Virus record (IMG/VR): IMGVR_UViG_3300042562_001169
Length of the DNA: 45,523 nucleotides
Direction: 5' to 3' (one strand)
DNA from: a virus
Lineage: Duplodnaviria > Heunggongvirae > Uroviricota > Caudoviricetes
Shown: piece after piece, positions 30,223 through 42,204 of the stretch
Layout of the letters: the number at the start of each line of letters is the position of its first letter
Numbering within the stretch: the first letter of the stretch is position 1
The notes under the pieces: generated by a model
Told to the model about the DNA's origin: nothing
Database searches by the model: none
Seen by the model: only the letters and a program-made list of their open reading frames with translations
Position numbers and translations under genes: made by a program

Positions 30223-30315
30223 AATGAGTTTAGAAATTGGTGTAAAATTGTTCTTCACGGTGTTAATAATCATATTTGCTTGGTATCATATTTCAAAATT
30301 CTTAAAAAGAAAATA
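30223..30315 (+). CDS. 30-aa single-TM peptide
   Basis: MSLEIGVKLFFTVLIIIFAWYHISKFLKRK. Confidence 0.45.
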
Positions 30316-30323
30316 AAAAAATA

Positions 30324-30354
30324 TTTGACTTTTATTAAACTTTTCGTAAGTTTG
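30324..30354 (+). promoter_or_regulatory. Bacteroidota-type promoter driving tRNA leader 1
   Basis: TTTG 30324-27, 19 nt, TAAGTTTG 30347-54. Confidence 0.75.
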
Positions 30355-30401
30355 ATATAATTATAGAAAACAAAGGTAGAGATACCACAAAATTTAAAAA
30401 A

Positions 30402-30524
30402 ATGAAAAACACTAATAAACATATGAACGTCGTGATTTGGAACCAACAATTTAGTAATTGTTCGTATCCGCGTATCTCGCATACAAGTTCAGATGATTTA
30501 TCAAGTGATTTAATTTTATACTAA
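30402..30524 (+). CDS. Leader peptide 1 of tRNA block 1: MKNTNKHMNVVIWNQQFSNCSYPRISHTSSDDLSSDLILY
   Basis: 40-codon ORF between promoter and terminator; contains AGTTCAG (30486-92) complementary to the terminator 5' arm. Confidence 0.75.
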   Translation: MKNTNKHMNVVIWNQQFSNCSYPRISHTSSDDLSSDLILY

Positions 30525-30551
30525 AGATTAAACCAACAATATAAGATAAAG

Positions 30552-30583
30552 TCCTGAACTCAAAAAGTTCAGGATTTTTTTTT
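30552..30583 (+). terminator. Attenuator terminator upstream of tRNA block 1
   Basis: TCCTGAACT/AGTTCAGGA plus 9 T. Confidence 0.9.
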
Positions 30584-30635
30584 GTTTCATAATAAATGAA
30601 ATACGAACTGAAATTTCAAAAAAAATGAAACAAAG

Positions 30636-30666
30636 TTTGGAAGTTAAAAAAAAAGGATTACCTTTG
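30636..30666 (+). promoter_or_regulatory. Bacteroidota-type promoter immediately upstream of tRNA-Ser
   Basis: TTTG 30636-39, 19 nt, TACCTTTG 30659-66. Confidence 0.75.
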
Positions 30667-30715
30667 TCCCATCAAAATAAAGGATATGTTATTTGAAATA
30701 TTGGTAAGAAAAAAT

Positions 30716-30803
30716 GGAAGGGTAAGCCAAGTCGGTCTATGGGTCGCGGTCTTGAAAACCGTTGGGGGTAACACCCGTGTGAGTTCGAGTCTCACCTCTT
30801 CCG
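30716..30803 (+). tRNA. tRNA-Ser(TGA)
   Basis: GGAAGGG/CTCTTCC, GCGGT-CTTGAAA-ACCGT, long variable arm, G73. Confidence 0.92.
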
Positions 30804-30807
30804 CGGG

Positions 30808-30895
30808 TTAGTTAAATAGTTTAATCCACACCCAAAAAAGAATGTCCGGAGCGTGTCCGGGGCGAACGTAATTGTGGTAACCGTTCATTAACTAA
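30808..30895 (+). ncRNA. Structured spacer RNA (two hairpins plus a possible pseudoknot)
   Basis: TTAGTTAA/TTAACTAA closing stem; TCCGG/CCGGG; GAACG/CGTTC; CCACA/TGTGG. Confidence 0.4.
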
Positions 30896-30904
30896 AAAAT
30901 ATTT

Positions 30905-30976
30905 TGCCCCTTCGTATATCGGTTAGTACACATGGTTTTGGTCCATGCGGGGGGAGTTCGATTCTCTCAGGGGTAA
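30905..30976 (+). tRNA. tRNA-Gln(TTG)
   Basis: TGCCCCT/AGGGGTA, CATGG-TTTTGGT-CCATG. Confidence 0.92.
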
Positions 30977-31030
30977 CAAAGGGTTCGGTGGAACCCCAAG
31001 AGTAGGTGATGAGCCTATGTCCACCAAAAC

Positions 31031-31098
31031 GCCGAGTGGTCCGGGACCAGAGACGGTTCATATCTGACTCTAGAATGGCTCAACACCATTACTCGGTA
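31031..31098 (+). tRNA. Degenerate tRNA with CAT anticodon (Met-like)
   Basis: GCCGAGT/ACTCGGT, CGG-TTCATAT-CTG, T-loop CTCAACA, reduced D-arm. Confidence 0.55.
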
Positions 31099-31154
31099 CG
31101 GATGCACTCAGATTTGTACGTTTGAGGAGTGGGAAGAATTAAAATGTGCAAATT

Positions 31155-31225
31155 GCCTTGTTGGCGTAACGGAAGCGTATTTGTTTTACATGCAAAGGGA
31201 AGTGGTTCGATTCCACTACGAGGTA
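31155..31225 (+). tRNA. tRNA-Val(TAC)
   Basis: GCCTTGT/ACGAGGT, TTTGT-TTTACAT-GCAAA. Confidence 0.9.
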
Positions 31226-31271
31226 CTAGAATGGGTTCACACTACACTGTAGGGAGTTAGGAAGTGTAATT

Positions 31272-31352
31272 GGGTAGCAAAAGTCGTTCGGATACGGCAA
31301 CCTGACTGTAAATCAGGTCTTCACGGGAGTGGTTCGAGTCCACTGTTGCCCA
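31272..31352 (+). tRNA. tRNA-Tyr(GTA)
   Basis: GGGTAGC/GTTGCCC, CCTGA-CTGTAAA-TCAGG, long variable arm. Confidence 0.9.
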
Positions 31353-31355
31353 CTA

Positions 31356-31504
31356 TGATAATGGTTTTCTCTATATTGGATGTCGACAATTCAATATGGG
31401 TTCAAGAATTCATCACCCCCCTGAAAAGGGAATGTGCCGAGGGCCTCGTAAAACTACGATTAAGCACTTAAGATTGGGGCGAGACGGGTACTCCAACATT
31501 ATTA
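31356..31504 (+). ncRNA. Structured spacer RNA
   Basis: TGATAATG/CATTATTA and TTGGA/TCCAA closing stems; internal CCC/GGG, TCGTA/TACGA, GTGC/GCAC. Confidence 0.4.
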
Positions 31505-31509
31505 TAATT

Positions 31510-31582
31510 GGGTCTTTTGTATAGATGGTTCGTACGCTAGTCTGAAGAACTAGAGGATAGGGTTCGATTCCCTGAGGACCCA
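31510..31582 (+). tRNA. tRNA-Phe(GAA)
   Basis: GGGTCTT/AGGACCC, CTAGT-CTGAAGA-ACTAG. Confidence 0.92.
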
Positions 31583-31712
31583 CAAACAAGGTGACGCTAC
31601 AGTCGTAAGATTCCGGAATCGAGAAGACAAAAAGCCTAAGTGTAAAGATGAGCTCCTACATCCTTGGACTACAACAAGCCATTTTGCGGTGAAAATCGTT
31701 GTAGTCAAAAAT

Positions 31713-31784
31713 TGCCTTGTCGTATAAAGGTTATTACGGATGACTGTTAATCATCTTATGGAGGTTCGAGTCCTCCCGGGGCAG
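31713..31784 (+). tRNA. tRNA-Asn(GTT) copy 1
   Basis: TGCCTTG/CGGGGCA, GATGA-CTGTTAA-TCATC. Confidence 0.9.
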
Positions 31785-31916
31785 CGAGGTTACCTTACAC
31801 CTCCTATATGGCACTCGGTCCGTTAAGCCGGGGAAGTGAGGTAAAAAAAAATGACTACTATTAAGGAATGATACGAGCCTGCAAAGTTCGAAAATAGTCA
31901 GGTGGTAGTCAAAATT

Positions 31917-31988
31917 GGACTTGTAGCTCAGAGGAAGAGCGGATGGTTGTTAATCATCGGGTCGGGATATCGTAATTCTCCAAGTCCG
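31917..31988 (+). tRNA. tRNA-Asn(GTT) copy 2 with atypical T-loop ATCGTAA
   Basis: GGACTTG/CAAGTCC, GATGG-TTGTTAA-TCATC. Confidence 0.8.
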
Positions 31989-32101
31989 CAAAACCTTAAA
32001 TGTGGTATCAGATACTGACAGCTCCTGCTTAAGAAGGGGTGATGGGTGTGAAAGCTGATTGAAAAGGGTACTTCTCAAACCCACATTGATAGGTGATATA
32101 T

Positions 32102-32175
32102 GGTGATTGTAGCTGAATTGGTAAAGCGTCTGATTGTGGTTCAGGAGATTGTGGGTTCGAGTCCCACCTTTCACA
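32102..32175 (+). tRNA. tRNA-His(GTG) with encoded G-1 opposite A73
   Basis: TCTGA-TTGTGGT-TCAGG; acceptor with two T.T mismatches. Confidence 0.85.
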
Positions 32176-32190
32176 CTTAAATTATGTGTT

Positions 32191-32448
32191 ATGGATGAAG
32201 ATGGAAAAATTGAAGAATTAGAGGGTCTAATTGTAGATTTAAGATTTGATTTAAAGAAATCCAAAGATAAAGAGTTGATTTACTTGGACATTTTATCCAA
32301 CATTGATAATTCGTTAAAAGTGTTGTTCAAGAGGGAACAAGAAAATGAGAGATTTAATCTTGGTGATGATGTTAATTACCGAGAATGTATTGAGAATCTA
32401 AAGTCGGCGTTGGACGAATATAAACGAGTTTATAAATTACGGTTATGA
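32191..32448 (+). CDS. Hypothetical protein (likely start 32191)
   Basis: MDEDGKIEELEG...; the upstream ORF extension lies inside tRNA-His. Confidence 0.7.
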   Translation: MDEDGKIEELEGLIVDLRFDLKKSKDKELIYLDILSNIDNSLKVLFKREQENERFNLGDDVNYRECIENLKSALDEYKRVYKLRL

Positions 32449-32498
32449 AAAAGGTATTGGATAATCTTTGAGGTCTGCTAAACAACAGACTCAAGATT

Positions 32499-32687
32499 AT
32501 GAGTGTAAACACAAACAGAATGAAACTGAACAACGCGACTTGTTCAAAAGATTACAGATTGATTTGGTTAAAGTTTGAATACTCCCCTTATTGGGATGAG
32601 GGTGTTTATTACAGAAAAGGACAATTTTCTCACAAATACAGAGAACATAAAACTTGGAAGTATAACCGAAAAACTCAATGGAAGTAA
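32499..32687 (+). CDS. Hypothetical basic protein
   Basis: 62 aa, WKYNRKTQWK end. Confidence 0.65.
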   Translation: MSVNTNRMKLNNATCSKDYRLIWLKFEYSPYWDEGVYYRKGQFSHKYREHKTWKYNRKTQWK

Positions 32688-32689
32688 AA

Positions 32690-32753
32690 TGTGTTGTTCC
32701 CGTGAGAGGGGGGTATGAAATACGAGGTAGGTTATATCATCCTACACAACACA
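32690..32753 (+). ncRNA. Four-way-junction spacer RNA
   Basis: TGTGTTGT/ACAACACA enclosing TCCC/GGGG, GTAT/ATAC and GTAGG/CCTAC. Confidence 0.4.
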
Positions 32754-32775
32754 GAGGAGTTCTTAACCTCAAAAT

Positions 32776-32867
32776 GGTCAGGTGGCGGAATTGGTAGACG
32801 CAAAGGAATGTCTAAGGTTGGTATCATTCATTCTGTCCAATTACAGGTTCGAGACCTGTCCTGACTA
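32776..32867 (+). tRNA. tRNA-like gene with Leu-type D-arm and a non-canonical 14-nt anticodon loop
   Basis: GGTCAGG/CCTGACT, ACAGG-TTCGAGA-CCTGT, GAATG/CATTC stem with loop TCTAAGGTTGGTAT. Confidence 0.6.
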
Positions 32868-32874
32868 CAAAATT

Positions 32875-32947
32875 GTCTCCATCGTTCAACTGGAAAGGAC
32901 TTATCTTTACGACAGATAGAATAGGGGTTCGAATCCTCTTGGGGACA
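32875..32947 (+). tRNA. tRNA-Arg(ACG)
   Basis: GTCTCCA/TGGGGAC, TATCT-TTACGAC-AGATA. Confidence 0.9.
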
Positions 32948-32949
32948 CA

Positions 32950-33041
32950 AAAGTAGAGACAACGAGGATGATGCGCAAATTCATTAATTAGGTTCGAATC
33001 CTAAGCCGGGGGTTTATCCCCCGGCATTGAGACTCTACTTT
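32950..33041 (+). ncRNA. tRNA-like element with a displaced T-arm
   Basis: AAAGTAGAG/CTCTACTTT enclosing TTAGG-TTCGAAT-CCTAA and an 8-bp GC hairpin. Confidence 0.45.
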
Positions 33042-33046
33042 CATTT

Positions 33047-33132
33047 GGAGAGTAAAACAATCAGGGTATTGTCACCGCCTGCTAAGCGAGTGGTTCGGTT
33101 AAATGGATGGATTTCGAGTATTCTGCTCTCCG
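33047..33132 (+). tRNA. tRNA-Ser(GCT)
   Basis: GGAGAGT/GCTCTCC, CTGCTAA loop, long variable arm, G73; weak T-stem. Confidence 0.8.
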
Positions 33133-33148
33133 CAGAAAATTAAAGATT

Positions 33149-33244
33149 ATGGAAGAAAAAGAGAAAGAAAAATTTTGGTATGAAGCAGGGTCTTTCATAA
33201 CTAAAAAAGGTATTAAAGTAACTCTTTATTTAGAGGTAAAATAG
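33149..33244 (+). CDS. 31-aa hypothetical peptide
   Basis: MEEKEKEKFWYEAGSFITKKGIKVTLYLEVK. Confidence 0.45.
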   Translation: MEEKEKEKFWYEAGSFITKKGIKVTLYLEVK

Positions 33245-33249
33245 ACATT

Positions 33250-33444
33250 ATGAAAACATTTGAAACAAAAGAATTCTTAAATGAATTAGATAAGATGGGG
33301 GTGGTTTATACAATTGATTCTAACCCGAGTCCTGAAAAAATTGAGAGATTAAAGAAAAGTATTGAAAAAAGAGATTTAAGAATTAAACAAATGGTGGAAG
33401 ATTATAATTCCGGTAAATTTGATGAAGTGATTAAATCGTTATAA
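33250..33444 (+). CDS. Hypothetical protein
   Basis: 64 aa ORF. Confidence 0.65.
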   Translation: MKTFETKEFLNELDKMGVVYTIDSNPSPEKIERLKKSIEKRDLRIKQMVEDYNSGKFDEVIKSL

Positions 33445-33446
33445 AA

Positions 33447-33559
33447 TAATTAGTTCCCCCGTTTGTTCCGTCAAGGGGTATAAAGAGACATCAATCAACG
33501 GAACCCCAAATGGAGTCCTTGCCTTAGTAGGATAAAGATGTTATAAACTCAACTAATTA
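33447..33559 (+). ncRNA. Pseudoknotted spacer RNA
   Basis: TAATTAGTT/AACTAATTA; CCCC/GGGG with loop GTTCCGT pairing to ACGGAAC; ACATC/GATGT; TCCT/AGGA. Confidence 0.5.
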
Positions 33560-33563
33560 AATT

Positions 33564-33636
33564 CTAGATGTGGGAAAGTTGGTAATCCGCTACACTTGGA
33601 CCGTAGAGACCGCTGGTTCGAGTCCAGCCATTTAGA
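33564..33636 (+). tRNA. tRNA-Pro(TGG) copy 1
   Basis: CTAGATG/CATTTAG, CTAC-A-CTTGGAC-C-GTAG. Confidence 0.85.
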
Positions 33637-33700
33637 CGAAAGGAAACTGTTACTAATTTATTGGACCTCATAGTGGGGGGAATCGTAGAATTAGAAAATT

Positions 33701-33774
33701 CGGGGTGTGGACTAAAGGCTAGTCGCCTGGTTTGGGACCAGGACATCGAGCAGATTCGATTTCTGCCACCCCGA
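33701..33774 (+). tRNA. tRNA-Pro(TGG) copy 2
   Basis: CGGGGTG/CACCCCG, CCTGG-TTTGGGA-CCAGG. Confidence 0.9.
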
Positions 33775-33840
33775 CAATTAATTAATATTATTTACTTTTT
33801 TTGAACTTATAGTATATTTATAATATAAATAAGATACATT

Positions 33841-34413
33841 ATGACTACGAGTTTGAAAGAAGATATATTAAAATTAAGGAAAGAAGGTAAAAATTATAAT
33901 GAGATTTGCGAAATATTAAATTGTTCTAAAGGGACTGTTTCATATCATTGTAATAATAATAGTGTAGGGGGTAACTATGTTAGTAATGTTAGAGAAAAGT
34001 TAACAGATGTTGAAATTGAAGAGTTAAACATATATTATAAAGACCATTCAATTGAGGAATGTATAATTAAATTTAATCTTGGCCGGTCAACAGTTATTAA
34101 ATACACGAAAAACAAATATGTTAAATTAAGTGTAGATGAATTAAGAGATAGGAATTACAATAAAGTTAAAACACATAGACAAAGGTTAAAAGAAAAATCT
34201 ATTAGTTATAAAGGTGGTTCGTGTGAAAAATGTGGATATAATAGATGTAATTCGGCGTTAGAATTCCATCATTTAGACCCTAATAAAAAAGATTTCGGGA
34301 TTGGAACATATAGTGTTTTATCTTGGGATAAAATAAAAGAAGAATTAGATAAATGTATTTTATTATGTGCGAATTGTCATAGAGAATTACATTACAATTT
34401 ACTCGGTCAGTAG
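33841..34413 (+). CDS. HTH-HNH homing endonuclease; 3' end overlaps tRNA-Ile
   Basis: HTH (NYNEICEILNCSKGTVSYH); CEKCG..LEFHHLDP..LLCANCHRELH. Confidence 0.9.
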   Translation: MTTSLKEDILKLRKEGKNYNEICEILNCSKGTVSYHCNNNSVGGNYVSNVREKLTDVEIEELNIYYKDHSIEECIIKFNLGRSTVIKYTKNKYVKLSVDELRDRNYNKVKTHRQRLKEKSISYKGGSCEKCGYNRCNSALEFHHLDPNKKDFGIGTYSVLSWDKIKEELDKCILLCANCHRELHYNLLGQ

Positions 34414-34476
34414 CTCAATCAGTAGAGCATTCGCCTGATACGCGAAAGGTAGTAGGAGCGTAGCCTACCTGACCGA
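34404..34476 (+). tRNA. tRNA-Ile(GAT) with atypical T-loop AGCGTAG
   Basis: CGGTCAG/CTGACCG, TTCGC-CTGATAC-GCGAA. Confidence 0.82.
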
Positions 34477-34558
34477 CAAATGTGGCTCACTGATTTTGAT
34501 TATTAAGCTCAAATTACTTATATTTTGAGCCAAATAATAGAGTAAAATGAGCCCAATC

Positions 34559-34629
34559 GCCCCCAAAGCTTTAAGGTGAAGCACGATACTTTTAATATCG
34601 GGAAGTTGGTTCGATACCACCTGGGGGTA
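34559..34629 (+). tRNA. tRNA-Lys(TTT)
   Basis: GCCCCCA/TGGGGGT, CGATA-CTTTTAA-TATCG. Confidence 0.88.
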
Positions 34630-34637
34630 CAAAAAAA

Positions 34638-34902
34638 ATGTTTAACTAATAAATCAAAAGTTGTGAGTAGTGTTACTTGGTCAGTATTTAGTGCTGAATA
34701 TTTTAGTGAAGTAAAAAAAGAATTAGTGTGGAGAAAACAAACTTTTCTTTATATGGGAGATTTATCCAACGTAGATATGACAACAGATTGGAGATTTAGT
34801 GATGTTGAAGGAAAAAGAAGAAAGTGTAAATTTTTAGGGTTAATAGATAATCCGGAATTTCCACTAAAAGGACCAATTAAAACATATAGAAATAATGAAT
34901 AA
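34638..34902 (+). pseudogene. Hypothetical gene with an out-of-frame ATG (possible 1-nt insertion, or a downstream GTG start)
   Basis: ATG 34638 reads M-F-N-stop, but the adjacent frame stays open to 34902. Confidence 0.35.
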
Positions 34903-35401
34903 GTACGGAAAAACATTGGTTTTGGATTCAAGTTATATGCCAAGGTCTATCATAAACACTGAAAGGGCTTTTGTAATAACTTATAAAGGTAATGCAAGTG
35001 TAATTGCCGAACATCCGGAATCATTTAATCTAATCAATCCTGAATTAGATATTAAGAAACCTTCAATCATAAGGGTTTATAAATACGTGAATCAACCAAT
35101 TCATAAAGTTCCATTAAGTAGAGAGAATGTTTATCGTAGAGATAACTTTGAGTGTGTTTACTGTGGGTGTGATAATCGTAAGACATTGACATTAGACCAC
35201 GTAATACCCCAATCTAAAGGGGGTAAAGACGCGTGGGACAACTTGGTTACCGCTTGTAGAAGATGTAATGGTGAGAAGTCCAATTTGACTTTGGAAGAGT
35301 ATGGTAAAGAAATCCCCCAACCAAGACGACCACACTATTTAATGATGATGAAACAAGTTCATTATGTTCCAAAAGAATGGGAAGATTATTTGTTTATTTA
35401 A
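34895..35401 (+). CDS. HNH endonuclease (bacterial-type)
   Basis: SRENVYRRDNFECVYCG...LTLDHVIPQSKGG..WDNLVTACRRCN. Confidence 0.9.
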   Translation: MNKYGKTLVLDSSYMPRSIINTERAFVITYKGNASVIAEHPESFNLINPELDIKKPSIIRVYKYVNQPIHKVPLSRENVYRRDNFECVYCGCDNRKTLTLDHVIPQSKGGKDAWDNLVTACRRCNGEKSNLTLEEYGKEIPQPRRPHYLMMMKQVHYVPKEWEDYLFI

Positions 35402-35419
35402 AAAATAGTTATATCTTTG
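35389..35419 (+). promoter_or_regulatory. Bacteroidota-type promoter inside tRNA block 1
   Basis: TTTG 35389-92, 19 nt, TATCTTTG 35412-19. Confidence 0.7.
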
Positions 35420-35435
35420 TCAAAAATTAATAGAT

Positions 35436-35597
35436 ATGACAATGGAACAAGAAATTTTAGGTTTTACAAATTGGTTATACACTAACAATTGGAAACTAAT
35501 TGGTGATGGTATGTGTTTGAATCTTGAAACAAAGGAAATTGGTTATATTAACGAACTAATGGTCGAATATGAACTAATTGCCGAATATAAAGAATAG
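35436..35597 (+). CDS. Hypothetical protein (53 aa)
   Basis: MTMEQEILGFTNW...; downstream of the promoter. Confidence 0.6.
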   Translation: MTMEQEILGFTNWLYTNNWKLIGDGMCLNLETKEIGYINELMVEYELIAEYKE

Positions 35598-35602
35598 AAA
35601 TT

Positions 35603-35845
35603 ATGATACCAAAAAATGAAATGGTTGAAGGTTGGTATAAGGGTTTCTGTAGAAACAATTATATGGCTTTTTGGGACGGAGAGAAGTTCCAATACATCCG
35701 ATATAAGTTCGGGTATCGTTTGGATACCATAGAACATTTTGAAGATGTTAAAGAACAAAGATTAGATGGGTTTGTCCCGGTTGAGAGAATTGAAAGATTA
35801 ACTCCGGAGGAACAATGGAATGAAAAAAATGAAATAGGATATTAA
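35603..35845 (+). CDS. Hypothetical protein
   Basis: 80 aa ORF. Confidence 0.7.
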   Translation: MIPKNEMVEGWYKGFCRNNYMAFWDGEKFQYIRYKFGYRLDTIEHFEDVKEQRLDGFVPVERIERLTPEEQWNEKNEIGY

Positions 35846-35846
35846 G

Positions 35847-36446
35847 ATGATAGATAATATAAAAGAAATCAAAGAATTACTGAATTTCTCGGACAAAAAC
35901 GATTTCTATATGTTATACGTTTTCAAGAGAAAAAAGGACCAACCTGAGGGTGAGAGAGATAATCACCAATCGGTTAGAACAATCAAAACATATTGTATTG
36001 ACAGCATTGAACATCTTGATAAGAGATACGATGAAATCAAACAATTATGTGAGATGTTCAAGGCAAGAGCTTACATTCACGTTCAGAAACAAAACCATAT
36101 GGATGTTTCTTTGGAAATGATGATGTCGTTAGCTGAGAGAATTAAAAATGGTGTGAAAAACCAAAAGGGTTTATTTGATTCCGTTGTGGGTCAAATCAAA
36201 ACACAAGAAAAAAGATGGATTGTAGATATTGATACAACTGACCCTGATTTTTTATATGAAGTTGCGGATTTTATTAAAGACCTTAAACCAGTTGGTTTTA
36301 AAGTTGAAAAAGTAATACCTACCAAAAATGGTAGACATTTAATCACATCTCGATTCGATGTTAAAACATTTAGTGAAAAATACCCGGATGTTGATATTCA
36401 AAAGAAAAATCCAACATTATTGTATTATCCAAATAGTTTAGATTAA
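35847..36446 (+). CDS. Hypothetical protein with AEP (primase-polymerase)-like motifs
   Basis: WIVDID and PTKNGRHLI. Confidence 0.55.
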   Translation: MIDNIKEIKELLNFSDKNDFYMLYVFKRKKDQPEGERDNHQSVRTIKTYCIDSIEHLDKRYDEIKQLCEMFKARAYIHVQKQNHMDVSLEMMMSLAERIKNGVKNQKGLFDSVVGQIKTQEKRWIVDIDTTDPDFLYEVADFIKDLKPVGFKVEKVIPTKNGRHLITSRFDVKTFSEKYPDVDIQKKNPTLLYYPNSLD

Positions 36447-36625
36447 ACAACACATAGAAAAACGGACAATAGAGGCGTAAATTGGTTAGTCCACGCCCCG
36501 ATATAGCATTAGCCTATATTGTGACGACTCTAAACACCCCAAGAAGTGTTATGTTTTGTTGAGTAAGGTAAGAGAAGGTTGAAAGTCCAAAACATACTTA
36601 TCCCAACTTGGTGGATGTGTTGTTT
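36445..36625 (+). ncRNA. Repeated structured RNA motif, copy 1
   Basis: 11-bp closing stem; shares CAAGAAGTGTTATGTTT(T)GTTGAGTAAG with 39891-40077. Confidence 0.65.
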
Positions 36626-36634
36626 TTATTAAAT

Positions 36635-36704
36635 GGTCTTGTTGGTCGTGGCGACCGGTTAGTCTGCAAAACTAACAGAGTGAGTTCGATTCTCACCGAG
36701 ACCT
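36635..36704 (+). tRNA. tRNA-Cys(GCA)
   Basis: GGTCTTG/CGAGACC, TTAGT-CTGCAAA-ACTAA, U73. Confidence 0.9.
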
Positions 36705-36708
36705 CAAA

Positions 36709-36860
36709 TAACATAATTGTTTAACCACGAAAATGGGCTTGAACAACCGAATGGAAGACGCGTTTCTTACTAGGGAGTAAAATAGAAAATTAGATTCGGA
36801 GGCATCCGGGTTGTGTGAAAAAGTAGGGAGCTCCCGGCAGGGACTAAAATAATTGTGTTA
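36709..36860 (+). ncRNA. Structured spacer RNA
   Basis: TAACATAATT/AATTGTGTTA closing; TTTCT..AGAAA, TACT/AGTA, TCGGA/TCCGG. Confidence 0.4.
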
Positions 36861-36866
36861 TTATAT

Positions 36867-36938
36867 ACGTCATTGGTGAAATGGTTATCATTTTAGTCTC
36901 CAAAACTAAAGTTTCAGATTCGAGTTCTGAATGGCGTG
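36867..36938 (+). tRNA. tRNA-Trp(CCA)
   Basis: ACGTCAT/ATGGCGT, TTAGT-CTCCAAA-ACTAA, G73. Confidence 0.9.
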
Positions 36939-37010
36939 CAAGAAGACGGAGAGTGAGTCAAGGGTAATTCCGTTATGGTTATCCCTCGAGGGTCTCTCCT
37001 GAAGAAATAT

Positions 37011-37084
37011 GGATTTTGAAGTACAATTGGACGTGCGACCGGTGTAAGACCGGGAGGATATAGGTTCGAATCCTATCATTATCC
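37011..37084 (+). tRNA. Atypical tRNA-like gene (loop TGTAAGA, G33; nominal TAA)
   Basis: GTAC/GTGC D-stem, CCGG/CCGG anticodon stem, ATAGG-TTCGAAT-CCTAT; weak acceptor. Confidence 0.5.
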
Positions 37085-37088
37085 CAAG

Positions 37089-37236
37089 AAACAGACCTAT
37101 AACTTACGTCAGTGGTAGTGTAGGGGTGAGGTTCGGAGTAATCAACCAAACCAAGAAACCGCCGAGGGTAAACACGAGTATGATGCTTGTCTAGTCCCCT
37201 AAGACTGAAATATCGGAGAATCCTCATTGTCTGTTT
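37089..37236 (+). ncRNA. Structured spacer RNA with pseudoknot potential
   Basis: AAACAGAC/GTCTGTTT; CAGT/ACTG, AGGGG/CCCCT, TGAGG/CCTCA, ACGAGTA/TGCTTGT. Confidence 0.4.
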
Positions 37237-37246
37237 TTTTAAAATA

Positions 37247-37443
37247 AAAAGTTTAACAACCGGGGTGTCCATACTCTAAAAAATTAATGGACTAGCGTGT
37301 TGATAGGGGTGACCTCCCAATAGTAGCACCGTAGTAATACGGTAAAGGATAGATAAGGACTAGTACGCCGGTGACGAACACGACGAATTCCGGAATTCCC
37401 ATTGTAGCCCGCTACGACCCGAGGGCGGGGTTGTTAAACTTTT
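37247..37443 (+). ncRNA. About 200-nt structured RNA closed by a perfect 15-bp stem
   Basis: AAAAGTTTAACAACC/GGTTGTTAAACTTTT; GTCCA/TGGAC, CGTGTT/AACACG, ACCGTA-GTAA-TACGGT. Confidence 0.6.
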
Positions 37444-37461
37444 TTCTTTATATTTATCAAT

Positions 37462-37806
37462 ATGAAAAACTTTAAATTTTTAATGGATAAACTCAAGGAC
37501 TATAATTTAGATTCTGAGGATTATGCGGTTTTTGGTTCCGCACCATTAGTAATCACCGGAATGATTAATGATGTTAATGACTTAGACGTAATTATACGTC
37601 CATCAAAATGGGAATTTAATGATGAAGGTGAATATAGAACCAAAGATATTGAATTTTTCAATAATTGGCCCGAATACGATATTGATGACTTAATTGATAA
37701 TCACTCATTCGTTTATAATGGGGTTCGATTCATAAATCCAAAGAAAGTTATTGAATATAAAAAATCCCTTAAAAGGAATAAAGATAAAAATATTTGGGAT
37801 AATTAA
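37462..37806 (+). CDS. Minimal nucleotidyltransferase-like protein (Pol-beta superfamily)
   Basis: YAVFGS...NDLDVII. Confidence 0.65.
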   Translation: MKNFKFLMDKLKDYNLDSEDYAVFGSAPLVITGMINDVNDLDVIIRPSKWEFNDEGEYRTKDIEFFNNWPEYDIDDLIDNHSFVYNGVRFINPKKVIEYKKSLKRNKDKNIWDN

Positions 37807-37878
37807 AATAAATCTTACCAATAATTGACTTTTTACAAAACTAACGTATATTTATTAGAAATTACAATAACACAACAA

Positions 37879-37953
37879 ATGCAAACTTTAAACATATTAC
37901 TTACGATAGCGGGAACTGAGGGTAGAGATACAACTTGGAAGCAGATGGTATGA
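37879..37953 (+). CDS. Leader peptide 2 of tRNA block 2: MQTLNILLTIAGTEGRDTTWKQMV
   Basis: 24-codon ORF; AGATGG (37943-48) complementary to the terminator 5' arm; TTG-N19-TATATTTA promoter-like element at 37825-37854. Confidence 0.75.
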   Translation: MQTLNILLTIAGTEGRDTTWKQMV

Positions 37954-37982
37954 TATATATTTAAGTAAAAAAAATATTCAAA

Positions 37983-38014
37983 AATCCATCTTCAAAAAAG
38001 GTGGATTTTTTTTT
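37983..38014 (+). terminator. Attenuator terminator upstream of tRNA block 2
   Basis: AATCCATCTT/AAGGTGGATT plus T-run. Confidence 0.9.
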
Positions 38015-38023
38015 GTCTTAAAG

Positions 38024-38054
38024 TTTGGTATATTGAAATAAAAGATTATCTTTG
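38024..38054 (+). promoter_or_regulatory. Bacteroidota-type promoter
   Basis: TTTG 38024-27, 19 nt, TATCTTTG 38047-54. Confidence 0.75.
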
Positions 38055-38075
38055 TAAGGAATTAAAAAACAAGAT

Positions 38076-38186
38076 ATGGACGATACAAGAGAAGAGTTGG
38101 TTATGGATTACTCACCAATATTAGGAGTAACCTACGGATTAAAAAATGTTTTGGTTGAGGATGATTCAACAGAAAAAGAAGAATAA
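38076..38186 (+). CDS. 36-aa hypothetical peptide
   Basis: MDDTREELVMDYSPILG...; lies between two near-identical promoters. Confidence 0.5.
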   Translation: MDDTREELVMDYSPILGVTYGLKNVLVEDDSTEKEE

Positions 38187-38202
38187 AAAAAAGATTAAAA
38201 AG

Positions 38203-38233
38203 TTTGGTATAATGAAATAAAGTATTATCTTTG
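38203..38233 (+). promoter_or_regulatory. Bacteroidota-type promoter upstream of tRNA-Glu (near-copy of 38024)
   Basis: TTTG 38203-06, 19 nt, TATCTTTG 38226-33. Confidence 0.75.
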
Positions 38234-38280
38234 TACCATCAAAATGAAACAAGTTAATTGACATATTGGTAATATAAAAC

Positions 38281-38352
38281 GGCCCTATCATCTATCGGTT
38301 AGGATATTTGGTTTTCATCCAAAAAAGTCGGGTTCGACTCCCGGTGGGGCTA
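38281..38352 (+). tRNA. tRNA-Glu(TTC)
   Basis: GGCCCTA/TGGGGCT, TTTGG-TTTTCAT-CCAAA. Confidence 0.92.
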
Positions 38353-38417
38353 CAAGGGTTATGAACAACGTGTCCCCTTAATTTCACAATGTTGACAATT
38401 CGGAAAGACGAGTAAAT

Positions 38418-38487
38418 GGGTCAGATGACAACGGCAGTTCAACTGATTTGCAATCAGATTGTTTGGGTTCGACTCCCACTGTATCCA
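38418..38487 (+). tRNA. tRNA-Ala(TGC), irregular acceptor stem
   Basis: CTGA-TTTGCAA-TCAG; G3.U70 wobble retained. Confidence 0.65.
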
Positions 38488-38587
38488 CAAAAAACAGAAA
38501 GACAGAATACGGGAAGTCACTACCCGGGAAACACGGTTCTTTCTCCTTCAATTGTTATAGGATAGTCACCTTTGAATTGAAAATTTT

Positions 38588-38659
38588 GGTCTATTTGTCT
38601 AACGGCTAGGATGCTACCCTGTCACGGTAGAGGCGAGAGTTCGATTCTCTCATAGACCG
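38588..38659 (+). tRNA. tRNA-Asp(GTC)
   Basis: GGTCTAT/ATAGACC, CTACC-CTGTCAC-GGTAG, G73. Confidence 0.93.
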
Positions 38660-38708
38660 CAAAACTCAAGATTAATTACCTTGAGAATGGAAGGTTCGAA
38701 ACTTCCGA

Positions 38709-38817
38709 TTGATTATAGTGTAATGGTGCACACCATCCCCCCAAAACAGGGTTCGAGTCCCTGGAACGTGGGCTTCTCAGGGGAAGGGAGATTAAGGTTC
38801 GAATCCTTACTAATCAG
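38709..38817 (+). tRNA. tRNA-like gene with a large insertion in the anticodon loop containing a second T-arm
   Basis: TTGATTA/TAATCAG, GTGT/GCAC, TAAGG-TTCGAAT-CCTTA; insert CAGGG-TTCGAGT-CCCTG. Confidence 0.55.
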
Positions 38818-38822
38818 CAAAT

Positions 38823-38892
38823 TGCGTTAAAGTGTAAAGGTTGCATCTAAGTCTCATAAGCTTGGGGGGTGGTTCGAGTCCACGTTACGCTA
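38823..38892 (+). tRNA. tRNA(CAT), Met-type
   Basis: TAAGT-CTCATAA-GCTTG; acceptor with mismatches. Confidence 0.75.
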
Positions 38893-38906
38893 CTAAGAAT
38901 AAACAT

Positions 38907-38979
38907 CGTGGGATAGAGCAGTTGGCAGCTCGTGTGGCTCATAACCATAAGGTCGGAGGTTCGAGTCCTCCTCCCGCTA
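38907..38979 (+). tRNA. tRNA-fMet(CAT) (initiator-like)
   Basis: C1 mismatched with T72, GAGC/GCTC D-stem, TGTGG-CTCATAA-CCATA. Confidence 0.85.
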
Positions 38980-39001
38980 CTAATTTAATAACTAAATCCG
39001 T

Positions 39002-39175
39002 ATGGCTACAGTAGCAAAAAGGTCAAGACAACAAAGAGTTCTTGAAATGTTGGAGAAACAATTAAAAAATGGTTTAAAAACCGAAAAAGGAACACGAGAT
39101 GTGAAGGTTCCATTAACTGATTCTGATAAGAAGAGAATCGTTAAAGAGATTGAGAATCTCAAAACAAAAGTATAA
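39002..39175 (+). CDS. Basic hypothetical protein (57 aa)
   Basis: MATVAKRSRQQRVLEMLEKQLK... Confidence 0.65.
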   Translation: MATVAKRSRQQRVLEMLEKQLKNGLKTEKGTRDVKVPLTDSDKKRIVKEIENLKTKV

Positions 39176-39224
39176 ACTTATAAGTTTAAAATTTAAATTT
39201 ATTTTCAAGGTATAAGTTTAAAAT

Positions 39225-39298
39225 GCGGGTATGGTGTTTAACGGCTAGCACGTGGGCCTTCCAAGTCTGAAGTTTCGGTTCGAATCCGAATATCCGCT
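39225..39298 (+). tRNA. tRNA-Gly(TCC)
   Basis: GCGGGTA/TATCCGC, TGGGC-CTTCCAA-GTCTG, U73. Confidence 0.92.
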
Positions 39299-39300
39299 CA

Positions 39301-39728
39301 AAAATAGTGAAAAAGTAATTATATGAAGTAACCTTCGGGGACACTGCCGGAACCCTTTAACACATAGGTAGGTGAAAAGTATGATGAAAGACAACGGCGC
39401 ACCGGTCAACCATCTGGGAGTAATTACCCATAACGGATGTGGAGATGAAGTCACAGCTCCTTAGGACCGCAATGGTGAAAAATTTGGTCGAACTATTTTA
39501 ATTTTTATATTCTGTTTGACGTTAGACAGTATGGTGCCCTGGATATCTCGGAAACACAAGTGGGGAAGGAAGTTACTCACCACATACAGAAAACATAGAT
39601 TCGTATGTCTAACGAAAGGTTAAGTGAAAAGGTCGGCATTCGTTCCAACGTTGCGACAGACTATAATAGGGGAGTGAAGGGGTTTGGGCCTTCACACTTA
39701 ATTACCAATCTATGTCGGTAACAGAATA
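39301..39728 (+). ncRNA. Large non-coding structured region (two domains of about 200 nt)
   Basis: AAAATAGT/ACTATTTT and TATTCTGTT/AACAGAATA closing stems; long-range GTTAGACA/TGTCTAAC and CATAGATT/AATCTATG. Confidence 0.6.
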
Positions 39729-39732
39729 AATT

Positions 39733-39804
39733 GGCTCCATCGTTCAACGGATAGGACATTTCTCTTCTAAGGAAATTATCGGGGTTCGAATCCCTGTGGA
39801 GTCA
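39733..39804 (+). tRNA. tRNA-Arg(TCT)
   Basis: GGCTCCA/TGGAGTC, TTTCT-CTTCTAA-GGAAA. Confidence 0.92.
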
Positions 39805-39812
39805 CAACAATT

Positions 39813-39885
39813 GCCTTGGTGGTGGAACGGTAGACACGGAAGTCTTAGGAACTTCATATTGAGGGTTCGATTCCCTCCTGAGGTA
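39813..39885 (+). tRNA. tRNA-Leu(TAG) with short variable loop
   Basis: GCCTTGG/CTGAGGT, GAAGT-CTTAGGA-ACTTC, variable region ATATT. Confidence 0.85.
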
Positions 39886-39890
39886 CAAAA

Positions 39891-40077
39891 TTTACGCATA
39901 GAAAGACAAACAAAATACAAGCCACAACAGTTAATGCACTACAATGTATTACAACACTATCAAGAAGTGTTATGTTTGTTGAGTAAGATAAAGAAAAACC
40001 TGGACGTGAGTTAGGTATGGATTAAGGTGAGAGTCGTAACCTCCATAGAATTATCCCCATCTTGAGGGATGTGTAAA
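39891..40077 (+). ncRNA. Repeated structured RNA motif, copy 2
   Basis: TTTACGCAT/ATGTGTAAA closing; core block shared with 36445-36625. Confidence 0.65.
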
Positions 40078-40081
40078 AATA

Positions 40082-40235
40082 TACATTATCATAACTCGGT
40101 GTGATACACCGCCAACTACCTCCTTAAACAACGTGGGAACTGCGGTTCTCCCAATGTGGCCGAAGTGATGATGTAAAAAGAAACAGAGAAAAATCTGGAC
40201 AGCGAAAGCAGGATAGACCTTGGACAGTTTCTTTT
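40082..40235 (+). ncRNA. Two further stem-closed spacer elements
   Basis: TACATTATCAT/GTGATGATGTA (40082-40175); AAAAGAAAC/GTTTCTTTT (40176-40235). Confidence 0.4.
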
Positions 40236-40288
40236 AGTAGTTTAAGAGACAGAGCTGACTTCTACTTTAAAAAAATGCTCTGCGACAG

Positions 40289-40361
40289 GCTGGTAAAACA
40301 TAAATGGTGATGTGCTTGTTTTGTACACAAGATAATAGGGTTCGATTCCTTATACCAGCTC
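40289..40361 (+). tRNA. tRNA-Thr(TGT)
   Basis: GCTGGTA/TACCAGC, CTTGT-TTTGTAC-ACAAG. Confidence 0.9.
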
Positions 40362-40426
40362 AATTTTTTTTATTGTTCGAATCTGACTTTTGACTCTTTT
40401 TGTGATATTTATAATAAAGAGAAGTT

Positions 40427-41140
40427 ATGAAAAAATGGACAGAAGAAGAATTTAATTTATCAGTGAATTACATAAATAATGGGTTGACTTATGATGAAAT
40501 TGCGGAATTCTTAAATAGAACTAAAAAATCGGTTAGAATAAAGTTAAATAAATTTGGTGTTTATGTTAAACCAAAAATTTATACTATTGAAAAAAAATGT
40601 ATTCATTGTAATAATGATTTTATATCGTTTATTAGTGAAGAAAGAAAATATTGTTCTCAGTCGTGTTCCGCAAAAGAAAATAATAAATTATATGTTAAAC
40701 GACAAAAAACCGAATTTAATGTAGAAGTTAAAAATCTGAATAAACAAATTAAAAATTGTTTGAATTGTGGGTGTGAAATTAATGATTCAACAAAAACATA
40801 TTGTAATCAAATTTGTTTTCACGAAAATCGTAAAAAAAATATTTTTAATTTAATCAATAATAATGATACTACATTAAATCCAAGACAATATAAAAAATAT
40901 CTTATTGAAAAATATGGTAATAAATGTATGGAATGTGGATGGGGTGAAAAAAACCCAAAAAGTAATACAATACCAATTGAGTTAGAACATATCGACGGAA
41001 ATGGGTCTAACAACACATTAAGTAATTTAAAATTATTATGTCCTAATTGTCATTCTTTAACTCCAACATATAAGGGGGCGAATAAAGGTAATGGAAGACA
41101 TAATAGAAGAGAAAGATACCAAGATGGTAAAAGTTATTAA
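40427..41140 (+). CDS. HTH-Zn finger-HNH homing endonuclease
   Basis: LTYDEIAEFLNRT..SV; CxxC..YCSxxC repeats; IELEHIDGN..NN.LSNL.LLCPNCH. Confidence 0.9.
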   Translation: MKKWTEEEFNLSVNYINNGLTYDEIAEFLNRTKKSVRIKLNKFGVYVKPKIYTIEKKCIHCNNDFISFISEERKYCSQSCSAKENNKLYVKRQKTEFNVEVKNLNKQIKNCLNCGCEINDSTKTYCNQICFHENRKKNIFNLINNNDTTLNPRQYKKYLIEKYGNKCMECGWGEKNPKSNTIPIELEHIDGNGSNNTLSNLKLLCPNCHSLTPTYKGANKGNGRHNRRERYQDGKSY

Positions 41141-41143
41141 AAT

Positions 41144-41223
41144 AGTTAGGTGGCGGAATTGGATAGACGCGGCCCCGTTGAGGGGTTTAACCGGAATTAC
41201 AGGTTCGAGTCCTGTCCTGACTA
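41144..41223 (+). tRNA. tRNA-like gene paralogous to 32776, non-canonical anticodon arm
   Basis: AGTTAGG/CCTGACT, GCCCC-GTTGA-GGGGT (5-nt loop), ACAGG-TTCGAGT-CCTGT. Confidence 0.6.
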
Positions 41224-41227
41224 CAAT

Positions 41228-41430
41228 TGAGATAGAGATACTCAATAGATTTGGCATCGTTTCTTAAACAAAGATGTAGCTGACGCCTCAAACGGTTTTA
41301 CAGAGGGGGTCTTAGGGTTAATAGGGAGCCTACCAACTCACCTCCTAGTAATGGTTGACTTTTTAAGTGGTAAGACACGTAGGGTTTTTGAATAGGAAAA
41401 ACTAAGAATATCTACACCAAAATAATCTCA
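41228..41430 (+). ncRNA. About 200-nt structured spacer RNA
   Basis: TGAGAT/ATCTCA, TTTGG/CCAAA, GTCTTA/TAAGAC, TAGG(G)AG/CTCCTA, GTTTTT/AAAAAC. Confidence 0.45.
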
Positions 41431-41443
41431 TTGGTGGAAAAAT

Positions 41444-41516
41444 GTCCTCGTGGTGAAACGGTAAACACAACGGTTTTAAGCATCGTAAGCTGTAGGTTCG
41501 ACTCCTACCGGGGATA
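41444..41516 (+). tRNA. tRNA-Leu(TAA) with short variable loop
   Basis: GTCCTCG/CGGGGAT, ACGGT-TTTAAGC-ATCGT, variable region AAGCT. Confidence 0.85.
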
Positions 41517-41582
41517 CTAATATTTAATATTATGAAAAACAACCAACCCAACTCCACTTAGTTTTAGCTATTAGCTAAAATT

Positions 41583-41813
41583 ATGACTCAGAAATTGAGA
41601 ATTTGGAGAGTAGTACCCGTTAGTAACGGTGTTCAGGCTCCCACTTTTTTCGTAGAAACTACGGAAGAAGGACGTGAGAAGGCAGAGGAATCTGCGATTA
41701 AACAAGCACGAATTAAATCGGGCTTAGGAAAGTTCAAACAATGGAACTTTAGATTGGAGAAACTCTCTGTGAGGGTTGATAAATTTGGTAGGTATGTGAA
41801 ACACCACCAATAA
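41583..41813 (+). CDS. Hypothetical protein
   Basis: 76 aa ORF. Confidence 0.65.
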   Translation: MTQKLRIWRVVPVSNGVQAPTFFVETTEEGREKAEESAIKQARIKSGLGKFKQWNFRLEKLSVRVDKFGRYVKHHQ

Positions 41814-41852
41814 GTTGACATATGTTTGTGGGTTCATTAAAAACCCATAATT

Positions 41853-41924
41853 GGTCTCGTAGCTCAAAGGTGGAGCAGTTCGCTCATAACGAAAAGGATG
41901 GGATATCGTGATTCCCCGAGACCA
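41853..41924 (+). tRNA. tRNA(CAT), probable Ile2 (lysidine type), atypical T-loop ATCGTGA
   Basis: GGTCTCG/CGAGACC fully paired, TTCG-CTCATAA-CGAA; the Ile2 call is an inference. Confidence 0.75.
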
Positions 41925-42036
41925 CAGCGGATATTTGAGTGTAAGCAAGTACAATATCTATCGTTAGACCCTTACAGGTGATGAACGGTGGTCTTAGGGT
42001 CATTCCTAAGTGTAGATACCAGTTAACTCTACATAG

Positions 42037-42064
42037 AACCTTCAAGGAAACTTGGGGGTTTTTT
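42037..42064 (+). terminator. Terminator closing the tRNA array
   Basis: CAAG-GAAA-CTTG core with extended stem and T-run. Confidence 0.7.
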
Positions 42065-42204
42065 ATTTACAATAAAATAAATCATCCTTATATTTATAAC
42101 TGAAACCTTGTTGCTGAGGTTCTCGTGTCCACAGAGGCATTTGAGTTGGAATTGATACCAACGAAGAGAAGTTCAATAAACATAAAAAATAAAATAAGGA
42201 AATT

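Follow-up and report, generated by a model that had tools for sequence, protein, structure and literature searches.

Leader 1 is a short open reading frame (ORF) at positions 30402-30524 of a 45,523-nucleotide (nt) stretch of DNA from an uncultured phage of lake-water metagenomes (IMG/VR record IMGVR_UViG_3300042562_001169); the whole stretch is referred to as the window. The ORF is preceded by a promoter (30324-30354) and followed by an intrinsic terminator (30548-30583), a second promoter (30636-30666) and a long array of transfer RNA (tRNA) genes that opens with a tRNA-Ser at 30716. A second, similar cassette at 37825-38015 splits this array into two blocks. The features reported below indicate that leader 1 and its terminator are probably a translation-sensing (leader-peptide) transcription attenuator governing read-through from the upstream promoter, P_A, into tRNA block 1. 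That the element works specifically as a homeostat of tRNA supply is a narrower proposal, towards which we lean with some reserve. A similarly slight preference is given to a two-channel homeostat, in which two complementary 'pangram' leaders would split the amino acids between them, each reading every tRNA species of its own block.

Leader 1 codons and the tRNAs of block 1

The leader 1 ORF lies on the plus strand and comprises 40 codons (peptide MKNTNKHMNVVIWNQQFSNCSYPRISHTSSDDLSSDLILY), with an A-rich region and no Shine-Dalgarno sequence upstream of its ATG. An earlier note on this DNA had listed codons 5-27 as a run confined to the amino acids of block 1. On rechecking the sequence, its coordinates and codons were all correct, and the run contains block-1-type amino acids exclusively, with every one of them represented. 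The GC-rich codons of the run, which the same note had considered unusual for the genome, are rare in the long ORFs of the window, where GTC and GTG make up 4% and 10% of Val codons, TCG 6% of Ser, CCG 18% of Pro, CGT 11% of Arg and ATC 14% of Ile.

Block 1 (30716-36939, plus strand), as delineated by ARAGORN, Rfam and a fold of the aligned cloverleafs, consists of Ser-TGA, Gln, an atypical cloverleaf with anticodon CAU, Val, Tyr, Phe, Asn (two copies), His, Arg-ACG, Ser-GCT, Pro (two copies), Ile-GAT, Lys, Cys and Trp. Its order is kept in relatives, and GC-rich spacers and HNH endonuclease genes lie among its tRNAs. The claim that block 1 serves all 14 of the amino acids in the run held for the 13 detected by ARAGORN or Rfam at default settings (S, Q, V, Y, F, N, H, R with anticodon ACG, P, I with anticodon GAT, K, C and W), but the fourteenth, Met, depends on the atypical cloverleaf and not on a canonical tRNA. 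In the run of 23 codons from 5 to 27, 22 have a cognate block-1 tRNA among those predicted by ARAGORN or Rfam, and the remaining one, ATG, matches the CAU cloverleaf. The regulatory codons of leader 1 therefore correspond to the products of the genes that it would regulate, as expected of an attenuator. To recover the Ser-GCT gene (33047-33133) in the window, the ARAGORN threshold had to be relaxed, whereas default settings sufficed in relatives. The CAU cloverleaf has an extended anticodon stem and a non-canonical T-loop; across more than 30 related contigs it showed seven compensatory pairs, no broken pair and an invariant YUCAUAU anticodon loop, and it is possibly an unusual tRNA-Met or tRNA-Ile2.

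The leader might alternatively be a chance ORF beside an ordinary terminator, short ORFs and 7-mer repeats being common in AT-rich DNA. At the amino-acid frequencies of the window itself, a random 40-mer contains a run of at least 23 residues without A, D, E, G, L or T with a probability of 8.9e-5, and such a run with all 14 other amino acids present with a probability of 5e-7. When 1.42 Mb of fetched DNA was scanned in six frames, runs of at least 20 codons with all 14 amino acids occurred only in this leader family. Comparison of leader 1 with leader 2, the ORF of the second cassette, for block-1 versus block-2 amino acids gave a Fisher p of 1.2e-4 for the whole ORFs, taken without picking any window within them, and of 4.5e-10 for the sensor parts only. 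A chance origin is refuted by the probability of about 5e-7, by the absence of any other case in the 1.42-Mb control, and by the 53 distinct homologues and the antiterminator covariation described below; its residual probability is negligible.

The part of the run that could act as a sensor was delimited by folding under ribosome masks. The predicted antiterminator helix pairs AGUUCAG (region 2, codons 29-31, 30486-30492) with CUGAACU (region 3, 30554-30560). In transcripts ending before the 3' arm of the terminator (region 4), this helix formed and was lost only with the ribosomal A site at codons 25-37, which puts the ribosome over AGTTCAG; sensing is therefore limited to codons up to about 24. 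Thus, the composition claimed for codons 5-27 stood, but the extent of the sensor did not. The effective sensor, codons 5-24 (30414-30473; N K H M N V V I W N Q Q F S N C S Y P R), already includes all 14 non-block-2 amino acids at positions where a stalled ribosome leaves 30486-30492 free. It offers one to four codons per block-1 amino acid and none for block-2 amino acids.

Conservation of leader composition among relatives

Homologous leaders were collected by two routes. Six IMG/VR contigs were recovered through the neighbouring 982-amino-acid protein (38-59% protein identity, same tRNA order), and further leaders were found with degenerate DNA patterns searched against IMG/VR and metagenome contigs, some of them longer than 300 kb. 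In total, 53 distinct leader-1 ORFs were obtained, 40 of subtype A, to which the window's own leader belongs, and 13 of subtype B. Subtype A reads M K N T N K H M N V [VS] I W [NK] Q Q F S N C S Y P R I S H T S S, followed by a variable tail, and subtype B reads M R T (I) N K H M V I I S K S Q F [MKR] N C W Y P R V ... G S E. In these 53 homologues the reading frame stays uninterrupted and has a conserved A-rich start context, and insertions and deletions occur in multiples of three, so that the tail, although variable, stays in frame and the peptides range from 29 to 41 amino acids.

Residues A, D, E, G, L and T were absent from codons 5-24 of the 40 subtype-A leaders and from codons 4-25 of the 13 subtype-B leaders, amounting to about 1,090 sensor codon cells without a single exception over both subtypes. 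All 14 remaining amino acids were found in the sensor of every leader, in varying order. The two subtypes differ at about 10 of some 23 sensor positions, and Trp occupies codon 13 of subtype A but codon 19 or 20 of subtype B; KHM, QF, NC and YPR are common to both. The lack of block-2 residues, the retention of all 14 amino acids and the relocation of Trp suggest that the composition of the sensor is conserved and its sequence is not.

The tail after the sensor (30483-30521 in the window) has a different make-up, with about 59% block-2-class residues as against 39% in the proteins of the window, and D, L and T dominate. Such a tail might prevent ribosomes short of block-1 tRNAs from stalling over region 2, or might be without meaning. 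A precursor of a ribosomally synthesized and post-translationally modified peptide, a class with a conserved N-terminus and a variable C-terminus, was also considered and rejected; no genes for modifying enzymes lie close by, and the RNA covariation speaks for another role.

Leader 2 (ORF 37879-37953, plus strand) has 24 codons (MQTLNILLTIAGTEGRDTTWKQMV) and, with its terminator, occupies 37879-38015 upstream of block 2, whose tRNAs are those for E, A, D, M, G, R (TCT), L and T. It is composed of T, L, A, G, E and D together with Arg AGA and Ile ATA, a counterpart to the tRNAs of block 2. In relatives the residues of leader 2 are shuffled and the set is kept, as in ILLTIAGTE, TLLLTIGAE, TILLLTGAE and TILLGGTEA. 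For the two amino acids read in both leaders, the codons follow the tRNAs: Arg is CGT in leader 1, with Arg-ACG in block 1, and AGA in leader 2, with Arg-TCT in block 2; Ile is ATT and ATC in leader 1, with Ile-GAT in block 1, and only ATA in leader 2, with CAU tRNAs in subtype A or Ile-UAU in subtype B.

In subtype B, Arg-TCT is located in block 1. There, leader 1 contains AGA at codon 2, and in most members also at codon 16 or 17, while the core of leader 2 has lost AGA and reads E A D T T in place of E G R D T T. A further case was observed in the subtype-B locus L065, in which block 2 includes a tRNA-Phe gene (220-297 of that contig, minus strand) and TTT, a codon lacking in other leader-2 copies, has been added to leader 2 (MKNLNIILLGGTEADTRFRTEMV). 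The Arg-TCT/AGA and Phe/TTT co-shifts are single events each.

These comparisons bear on the possibility that leader 1 acts through nascent-peptide arrest, as TnaC, SecM and Erm leaders do, in which case W13 ... P23, KHM and YPR would stall the ribosome in response to a small molecule or factor. The presence of KHM, QF, NC and YPR in both subtypes fits this explanation, but the spacing and position of W differ between subtypes, as do 10 of about 23 sensor positions, with the amino-acid set kept. Further, the shuffled order and constant composition of leader 2 are the mark of regulatory codons and not of an arrest motif. Peptide arrest is consequently given a very low probability.

A predicted three-helix RNA switch

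The terminator downstream of leader 1 (30548-30583, plus strand) was identified by a terminator scan and in the minimum free energy (MFE) fold, and consists of a 13-pair stem, a 5-nt loop and a run of nine T (30575-30583). It is conserved in all relatives, where it is positioned between the leader ORF and the tRNA genes. The earlier note had placed AGTTCAG and CTGAACT at the positions given here and proposed that they form a 7-base-pair (bp) antiterminator. The positions were confirmed, with the terminator 3' arm AGTTCAGG at 30566-30573, and the pairing was borne out by comparative analysis. Regions 2 and 3, the latter being the loop-proximal part of the terminator 5' arm, pair 7/7, and the resulting 2:3 helix appears in the MFE structure of the transcript cut before region 4.

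Across relatives, the 2:3 helix is intact at 7/7 pairs in 58/58 distinct sequences, which fall into six states with 3 of the 7 pairs changed on both sides. AGUUCAG with CUGAACU is found in most of subtype A and GAUUCAG with CUGAAUC in one subtype-A clade; most of subtype B has GGUUCGG with CCGAACC, and two subtype-B sequences have GGUUCGG with CCGAGCC, which includes one G·U pair. The other two states keep these region 2/3 pairs and differ solely in the terminator 3' arm. In the GAUUCAG clade the terminator 3' arm is still AGUUCAGG, leaving the terminator with one pair fewer and the antiterminator perfect. Because regions 2 and 3 changed in this clade while the 3' arm did not, region 2 tracks region 3 and not region 4. 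In no case did another segment of the ORF pair as well with the terminator 5' arm; region 2 had a mean of -10.5 kcal/mol compared with -4.6 kcal/mol for the best other segment. The antiterminator pairs were counted with our own script, because RNAalifold on the mixed alignment of subtypes A and B recovered the central hairpin described below but misaligned the subtype-B terminator arms.

Two elements refine the switch beyond what the earlier note had described, giving it three helices. The first is a predicted anti-antiterminator, whose 5' strand is region 1 (CAUAUGAAC, codons 7-9, 30420-30428, plus strand) and which pairs with 30487-30495 in the MFE fold of the full transcript; the full leader transcript folds with a z-score of -5.2. 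A helix of this 1:2 type is predicted in nearly all family members, and in subtype B it is located at codons 1-5, with covariation between its AU-rich part and the sequence flanking region 2 (AUUAAU/AUUAAU, AAUAUU/AGUAUU and CUAAUA/UAUUGG). Subtype A says little about the helix, because its AAC/AAT variation does not fully agree with the pairing. The second element is a central hairpin inside the sensor (AACAAUU-UAGU-AAUUGUU, 30445-30462, plus strand) in the RNAalifold consensus. Its six predicted pairs are kept in 25/25 aligned sequences, with one pair changed from AU to GC in subtype B and another from AU to GU in six sequences, and it is possibly a pause or timing hairpin. Helices 1:2, 2:3 and 3:4 are mutually exclusive; 2:3 covaries, 1:2 covaries in subtype B, and 3:4 is conserved throughout.

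The cassette of leader 2 has a comparable predicted antiterminator, AGAUGG/CCAUCU, with 6-8 bp in some relatives and only 5 bp where codon 22 is TCG or ACG. The evidence for this helix is weaker than that for leader 1.

Promoters and the route into block 1

The window contains 13 matches to the promoter motif TTTG-N18-20-TAnnTTTG (Bacteroidota sigma-A type), where 1.66 would be expected, and none of 100 shuffled sequences reached 13. Judged from these promoter motifs alone, the host would be a member of Bacteroidota. P_A, the promoter of the leader transcript (TTTG-N19-TAAGTTTG, 30324-30354, plus strand), conforms to this enriched motif and is kept upstream of the leader in relatives. The second promoter, P_B (TTTG-N19-TACCTTTG, 30636-30666, plus strand), was recognized by motif match in the interval between terminator and tRNA and is specific to subtype A; a motif of this kind follows the terminator in 31 subtype-A sequences and in 0/13 subtype-B sequences. 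In subtype B the first tRNA begins 35-45 nt from the terminator, with no promoter motif in the interval.

From the second promoter, the earlier note had concluded that the element would be an inducible boost and not an on/off switch. This holds for subtype A, in which P_B is present, but not for subtype B. With no promoter motif between terminator and first tRNA, the subtype-B switch would be on/off, and transcription of block 1 must therefore pass through it.

The promoter arrangement also bears on the idea that the locus is a stand-alone small gene or small RNA, with the peptide or the RNA of about 215 nt acting in trans and the tRNAs transcribed from the downstream promoter only. The consensus promoter after the terminator in subtype A would suit such a gene, as would the high conservation of the N-terminal 30 residues next to a variable tail and the strength of the terminator. 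There is also precedent, in that two reports on Sinorhizobium describe terminated attenuator RNAs and leader peptides that can act in trans (PMC6614838, PMC7298713). However, region 2 covaries with the 5' arm of the terminator and not with its 3' arm, which is sensible only if terminator formation is contested. Moreover, subtype B has no promoter between terminator and first tRNA, and across subtypes the peptide is kept as a composition and not as a sequence. A stand-alone function in trans is thus considered improbable.

Metatranscriptome contigs of relatives from four lake runs cover the leader, one of them ending at 30581 in the T-run and another bridging the terminator into tRNA-Ser, although contigs cannot show RNA ends and DNA carry-over is possible.

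Proposed mechanism and its strength

The locus combines a short promoter-proximal ORF, an intrinsic terminator, a predicted antiterminator, a predicted 1:2 helix and cognate codons, the features by which leader-peptide attenuators are recognized. In the mechanism that we propose, scarcity of any block-1 tRNA would stall a ribosome within codons 5-24. The stalled ribosome would cover region 1 or hold it off region 2, leaving region 2 (AGUUCAG) free to pair with the loop-proximal part of the terminator 5' arm as it emerges. The terminator would then be unable to nucleate, and RNA polymerase would continue into the tRNA genes. When decoding is fast, the ribosome would cross region 2 and depart, helix 1:2 would re-form, helix 3:4 would form and transcription would end at 30583. 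The result would be negative feedback on the supply of exactly the block-1 tRNAs, with leader 2 acting likewise for block 2. In subtype A, as in the window, the second promoter would set a basal level and the attenuator would provide an inducible boost, while in subtype B the attenuator would apparently be the sole route. The block would be expected to turn on whenever any one tRNA becomes limiting, as in early infection, during decay of host tRNAs or under attack by a host anticodon nuclease, and to turn off once supply is restored.

The central claim of the earlier note, that a ribosome stalled in the sensor frees AGTTCAG and blocks the terminator, is supported by the covariation of the 2:3 helix and by conservation of the amino-acid set in step with the two-block split of the array. 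The response to tRNA shortage is itself inferred from these sequence patterns. The same switch could instead be a general translation-coupling device, which would report the presence of ribosomes or overall translational capacity and not particular tRNAs, the amino-acid make-up being incidental. The three-helix design alone would suffice for this purpose, each amino acid is represented by only 1-4 codons, and structure accounts for part of the nucleotide conservation. General coupling nevertheless leaves unexplained why A, D, E, G, L and T are found 0 times in about 1,090 sensor cells and at about 59% in the tail, why the 14-amino-acid set is constant even with Trp relocated, and why the set in leader 2, ATA and AGA included, is its complement. 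We therefore regard it as unlikely, while ranking it ahead of the other alternatives to attenuation by tRNA supply.

Several observations weigh against a tRNA-sensing attenuator. Some concern the sensor: one leader (L017) has AGA at codon 6, seven leaders have Thr (ACC) at codon 25, and an Asn codon persists as the fifth codon of leader 2. For most amino acids the sensor has one or two codons, and a response would depend on sensitivity to a single hungry codon. In addition, the invariance of the sensor at nucleotide and synonymous sites is partly explained by RNA structure (the central hairpin) and not by codon identity. Others concern the genes: the Met tRNA of block 1 is the atypical 69-nt cloverleaf with anticodon CAU (31031-31099), which ARAGORN matched at a relaxed threshold only; at the end of block 1, positions 37012-37084 form a low-scoring tRNA-like element whose anticodon position reads UAA; and L065 has Pro and Met tRNAs upstream of the leader and yet retains P and M codons in the sensor. 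The consensus promoter downstream of the terminator in subtype A counts in the same direction.

The remaining objections concern the RNA. The antiterminator is only 7 bp long and closes a 61-nt loop, and when the complete transcript was folded under ribosome masks the terminator always won thermodynamically. The choice between the two structures must therefore be kinetic, as in classical attenuators; the MFE of the full-length transcript cannot decide the switch, and the truncated nascent transcript is the informative one. The stop codon lies 16-32 nt past region 2 in subtype A and 2-14 nt past it in subtype B, the latter being closer to trpL. In subtype A a terminating ribosome would therefore not cover region 2, unlike in trpL, and shut-off must rest on the re-forming of helix 1:2 or on the passage of the ribosome.

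Relation to known systems

Classical leader-peptide attenuators of enterobacteria include trpL, hisL, leuL and pheL as well as the multivalent thrL (Thr and Ile) and ilvGMEDA (Ile, Leu and Val) leaders. With these amino-acid-operon attenuators, leader 1 shares a promoter-proximal short ORF, regulatory codons, helices 1:2, 2:3 and 3:4 and an intrinsic terminator, as well as rare sensor codons, as in the leu leader, and conservation of composition over sequence. It differs from them in that phage tRNA genes, and not biosynthetic enzymes, would be controlled; in having a one-of-each set of 14 amino acids where they have runs of one to three; and in its two complementary leaders, its stop codon after region 2 and its Bacteroidota-type host. 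An Rfam search over 30300-42300, at the gathering threshold and at E values up to 1, returned only tRNAs and two sub-threshold matches, Thr_leader on the terminator and Plastid-ycf2 on the minus strand over tRNA-Lys. Among Rfam leader families (Thr_leader, Trp_leader, His_leader, Leu_leader and others), the only similarity was thus that to Thr_leader, which scored 28.2 bits against a cut-off of 55 (E = 0.067) and covered the terminator alone.

The attenuator of the Escherichia coli pheST operon, with its pheM leader, is a case in which leader-peptide attenuation controls a component of the translation apparatus and senses charged tRNA. The gene product there is an aminoacyl-tRNA synthetase for one amino acid, whereas here it would be the tRNAs themselves. 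T-box riboswitches also tie tRNA status to terminator read-through by way of an antiterminator, but bind uncharged tRNA directly and without translation, while in leader 1 the ribosome would be the reader. The T-box model, with its specifier loop and T-box sequence, had no Rfam match in the window at the gathering threshold or at E values up to 1.

The tRNA arrays of T4, T5 and giant phages consist of clustered tRNA genes with interspersed homing endonucleases, and the array in the window shares both features. Discussion of giant-phage tRNA sets usually centres on codon usage or on escape from host defences that cleave tRNA, and to our knowledge little is known of how phages control their own tRNA genes. 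A full-text literature search yielded no report of attenuators or leader-peptide control before phage tRNA genes. In the INPHARED collection of cultured phages, the 1.2-kb region matched solely through tRNA-Ser, the neighbouring 982-amino-acid protein had no tblastn match, and no cultured relative was found.

If the proposal is correct, these would be the first tRNA genes under leader-peptide attenuation, and leader 1, with 14 amino acids, would be the most multivalent attenuator known. Attenuation would then extend to 14 amino acids and not just one to three, and the classical mechanism would operate in Bacteroidota-type hosts and on RNA genes. It would also mean that phages gauge decoding capacity through the ribosome and adjust tRNA transcription by feedback. 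A specific prediction follows, namely that depletion of any single block-1 tRNA, and of no block-2 tRNA, raises read-through, with the two leaders serving as mutual internal controls.

Other features of the locus and the window

A hairpin with a GNRA loop, GGUA-GAGA-UACC, lies in the 5' untranslated region of leader 1 (30375-30386, plus strand) within the MFE fold. Its loop is GAGA, GAAA or GUGA in relatives, and the hairpin is absent in subtype B. The 11-mer GGTAGAGATAC occurs twice in the window, once at this hairpin (30375-30388) and once inside the leader-2 ORF (37922-37935, codons G R D T), and both copies are kept in relatives.

The motif TTGA(C/A)ATATTGGTAA is found directly before the first tRNA of each block in both subtypes (30691-30707 and 38258-38273 in the window), and in subtype-B loci such as L065 and L068 it stands 17-21 nt ahead of that tRNA. 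It is too near the tRNA to be a promoter, and might serve for processing or binding. A 36-codon ORF (MDDTREELVMDYSPILGV...) at 38076-38186, situated after the leader-2 terminator and ahead of block 2, is flanked by near-identical promoters at 38024-38054 and 38203-38233. Its YSPILGV core is kept in two relatives (L001 and L005), and the ORF is absent in a third (L004).

ARAGORN identified 24 tRNAs in the window, to which Rfam adds several more. Two HNH homing-endonuclease genes are located within block 1 (33841-34413 and 34895-35401). Long GC-rich spacers without ORFs separate some of the tRNAs (30805-30904, 30978-31154, 36940-37440 and others); they gave no Rfam match and are probably structured RNAs. 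Each block also contains one of a pair of paralogous type-II tRNA-like shells (32776-32867 and 41144-41224), which share acceptor, D and T arms and have anticodon arms with a 14-nt or 5-nt loop. Elsewhere, the window carries genes of the type found in large phages, among them Hsp70: a full-length Hsp70/DnaK homologue is encoded at 6715-8583 (Pfam E = 1e-254), and the gene at 1891-3012 specifies a protein that has two PAS domains.

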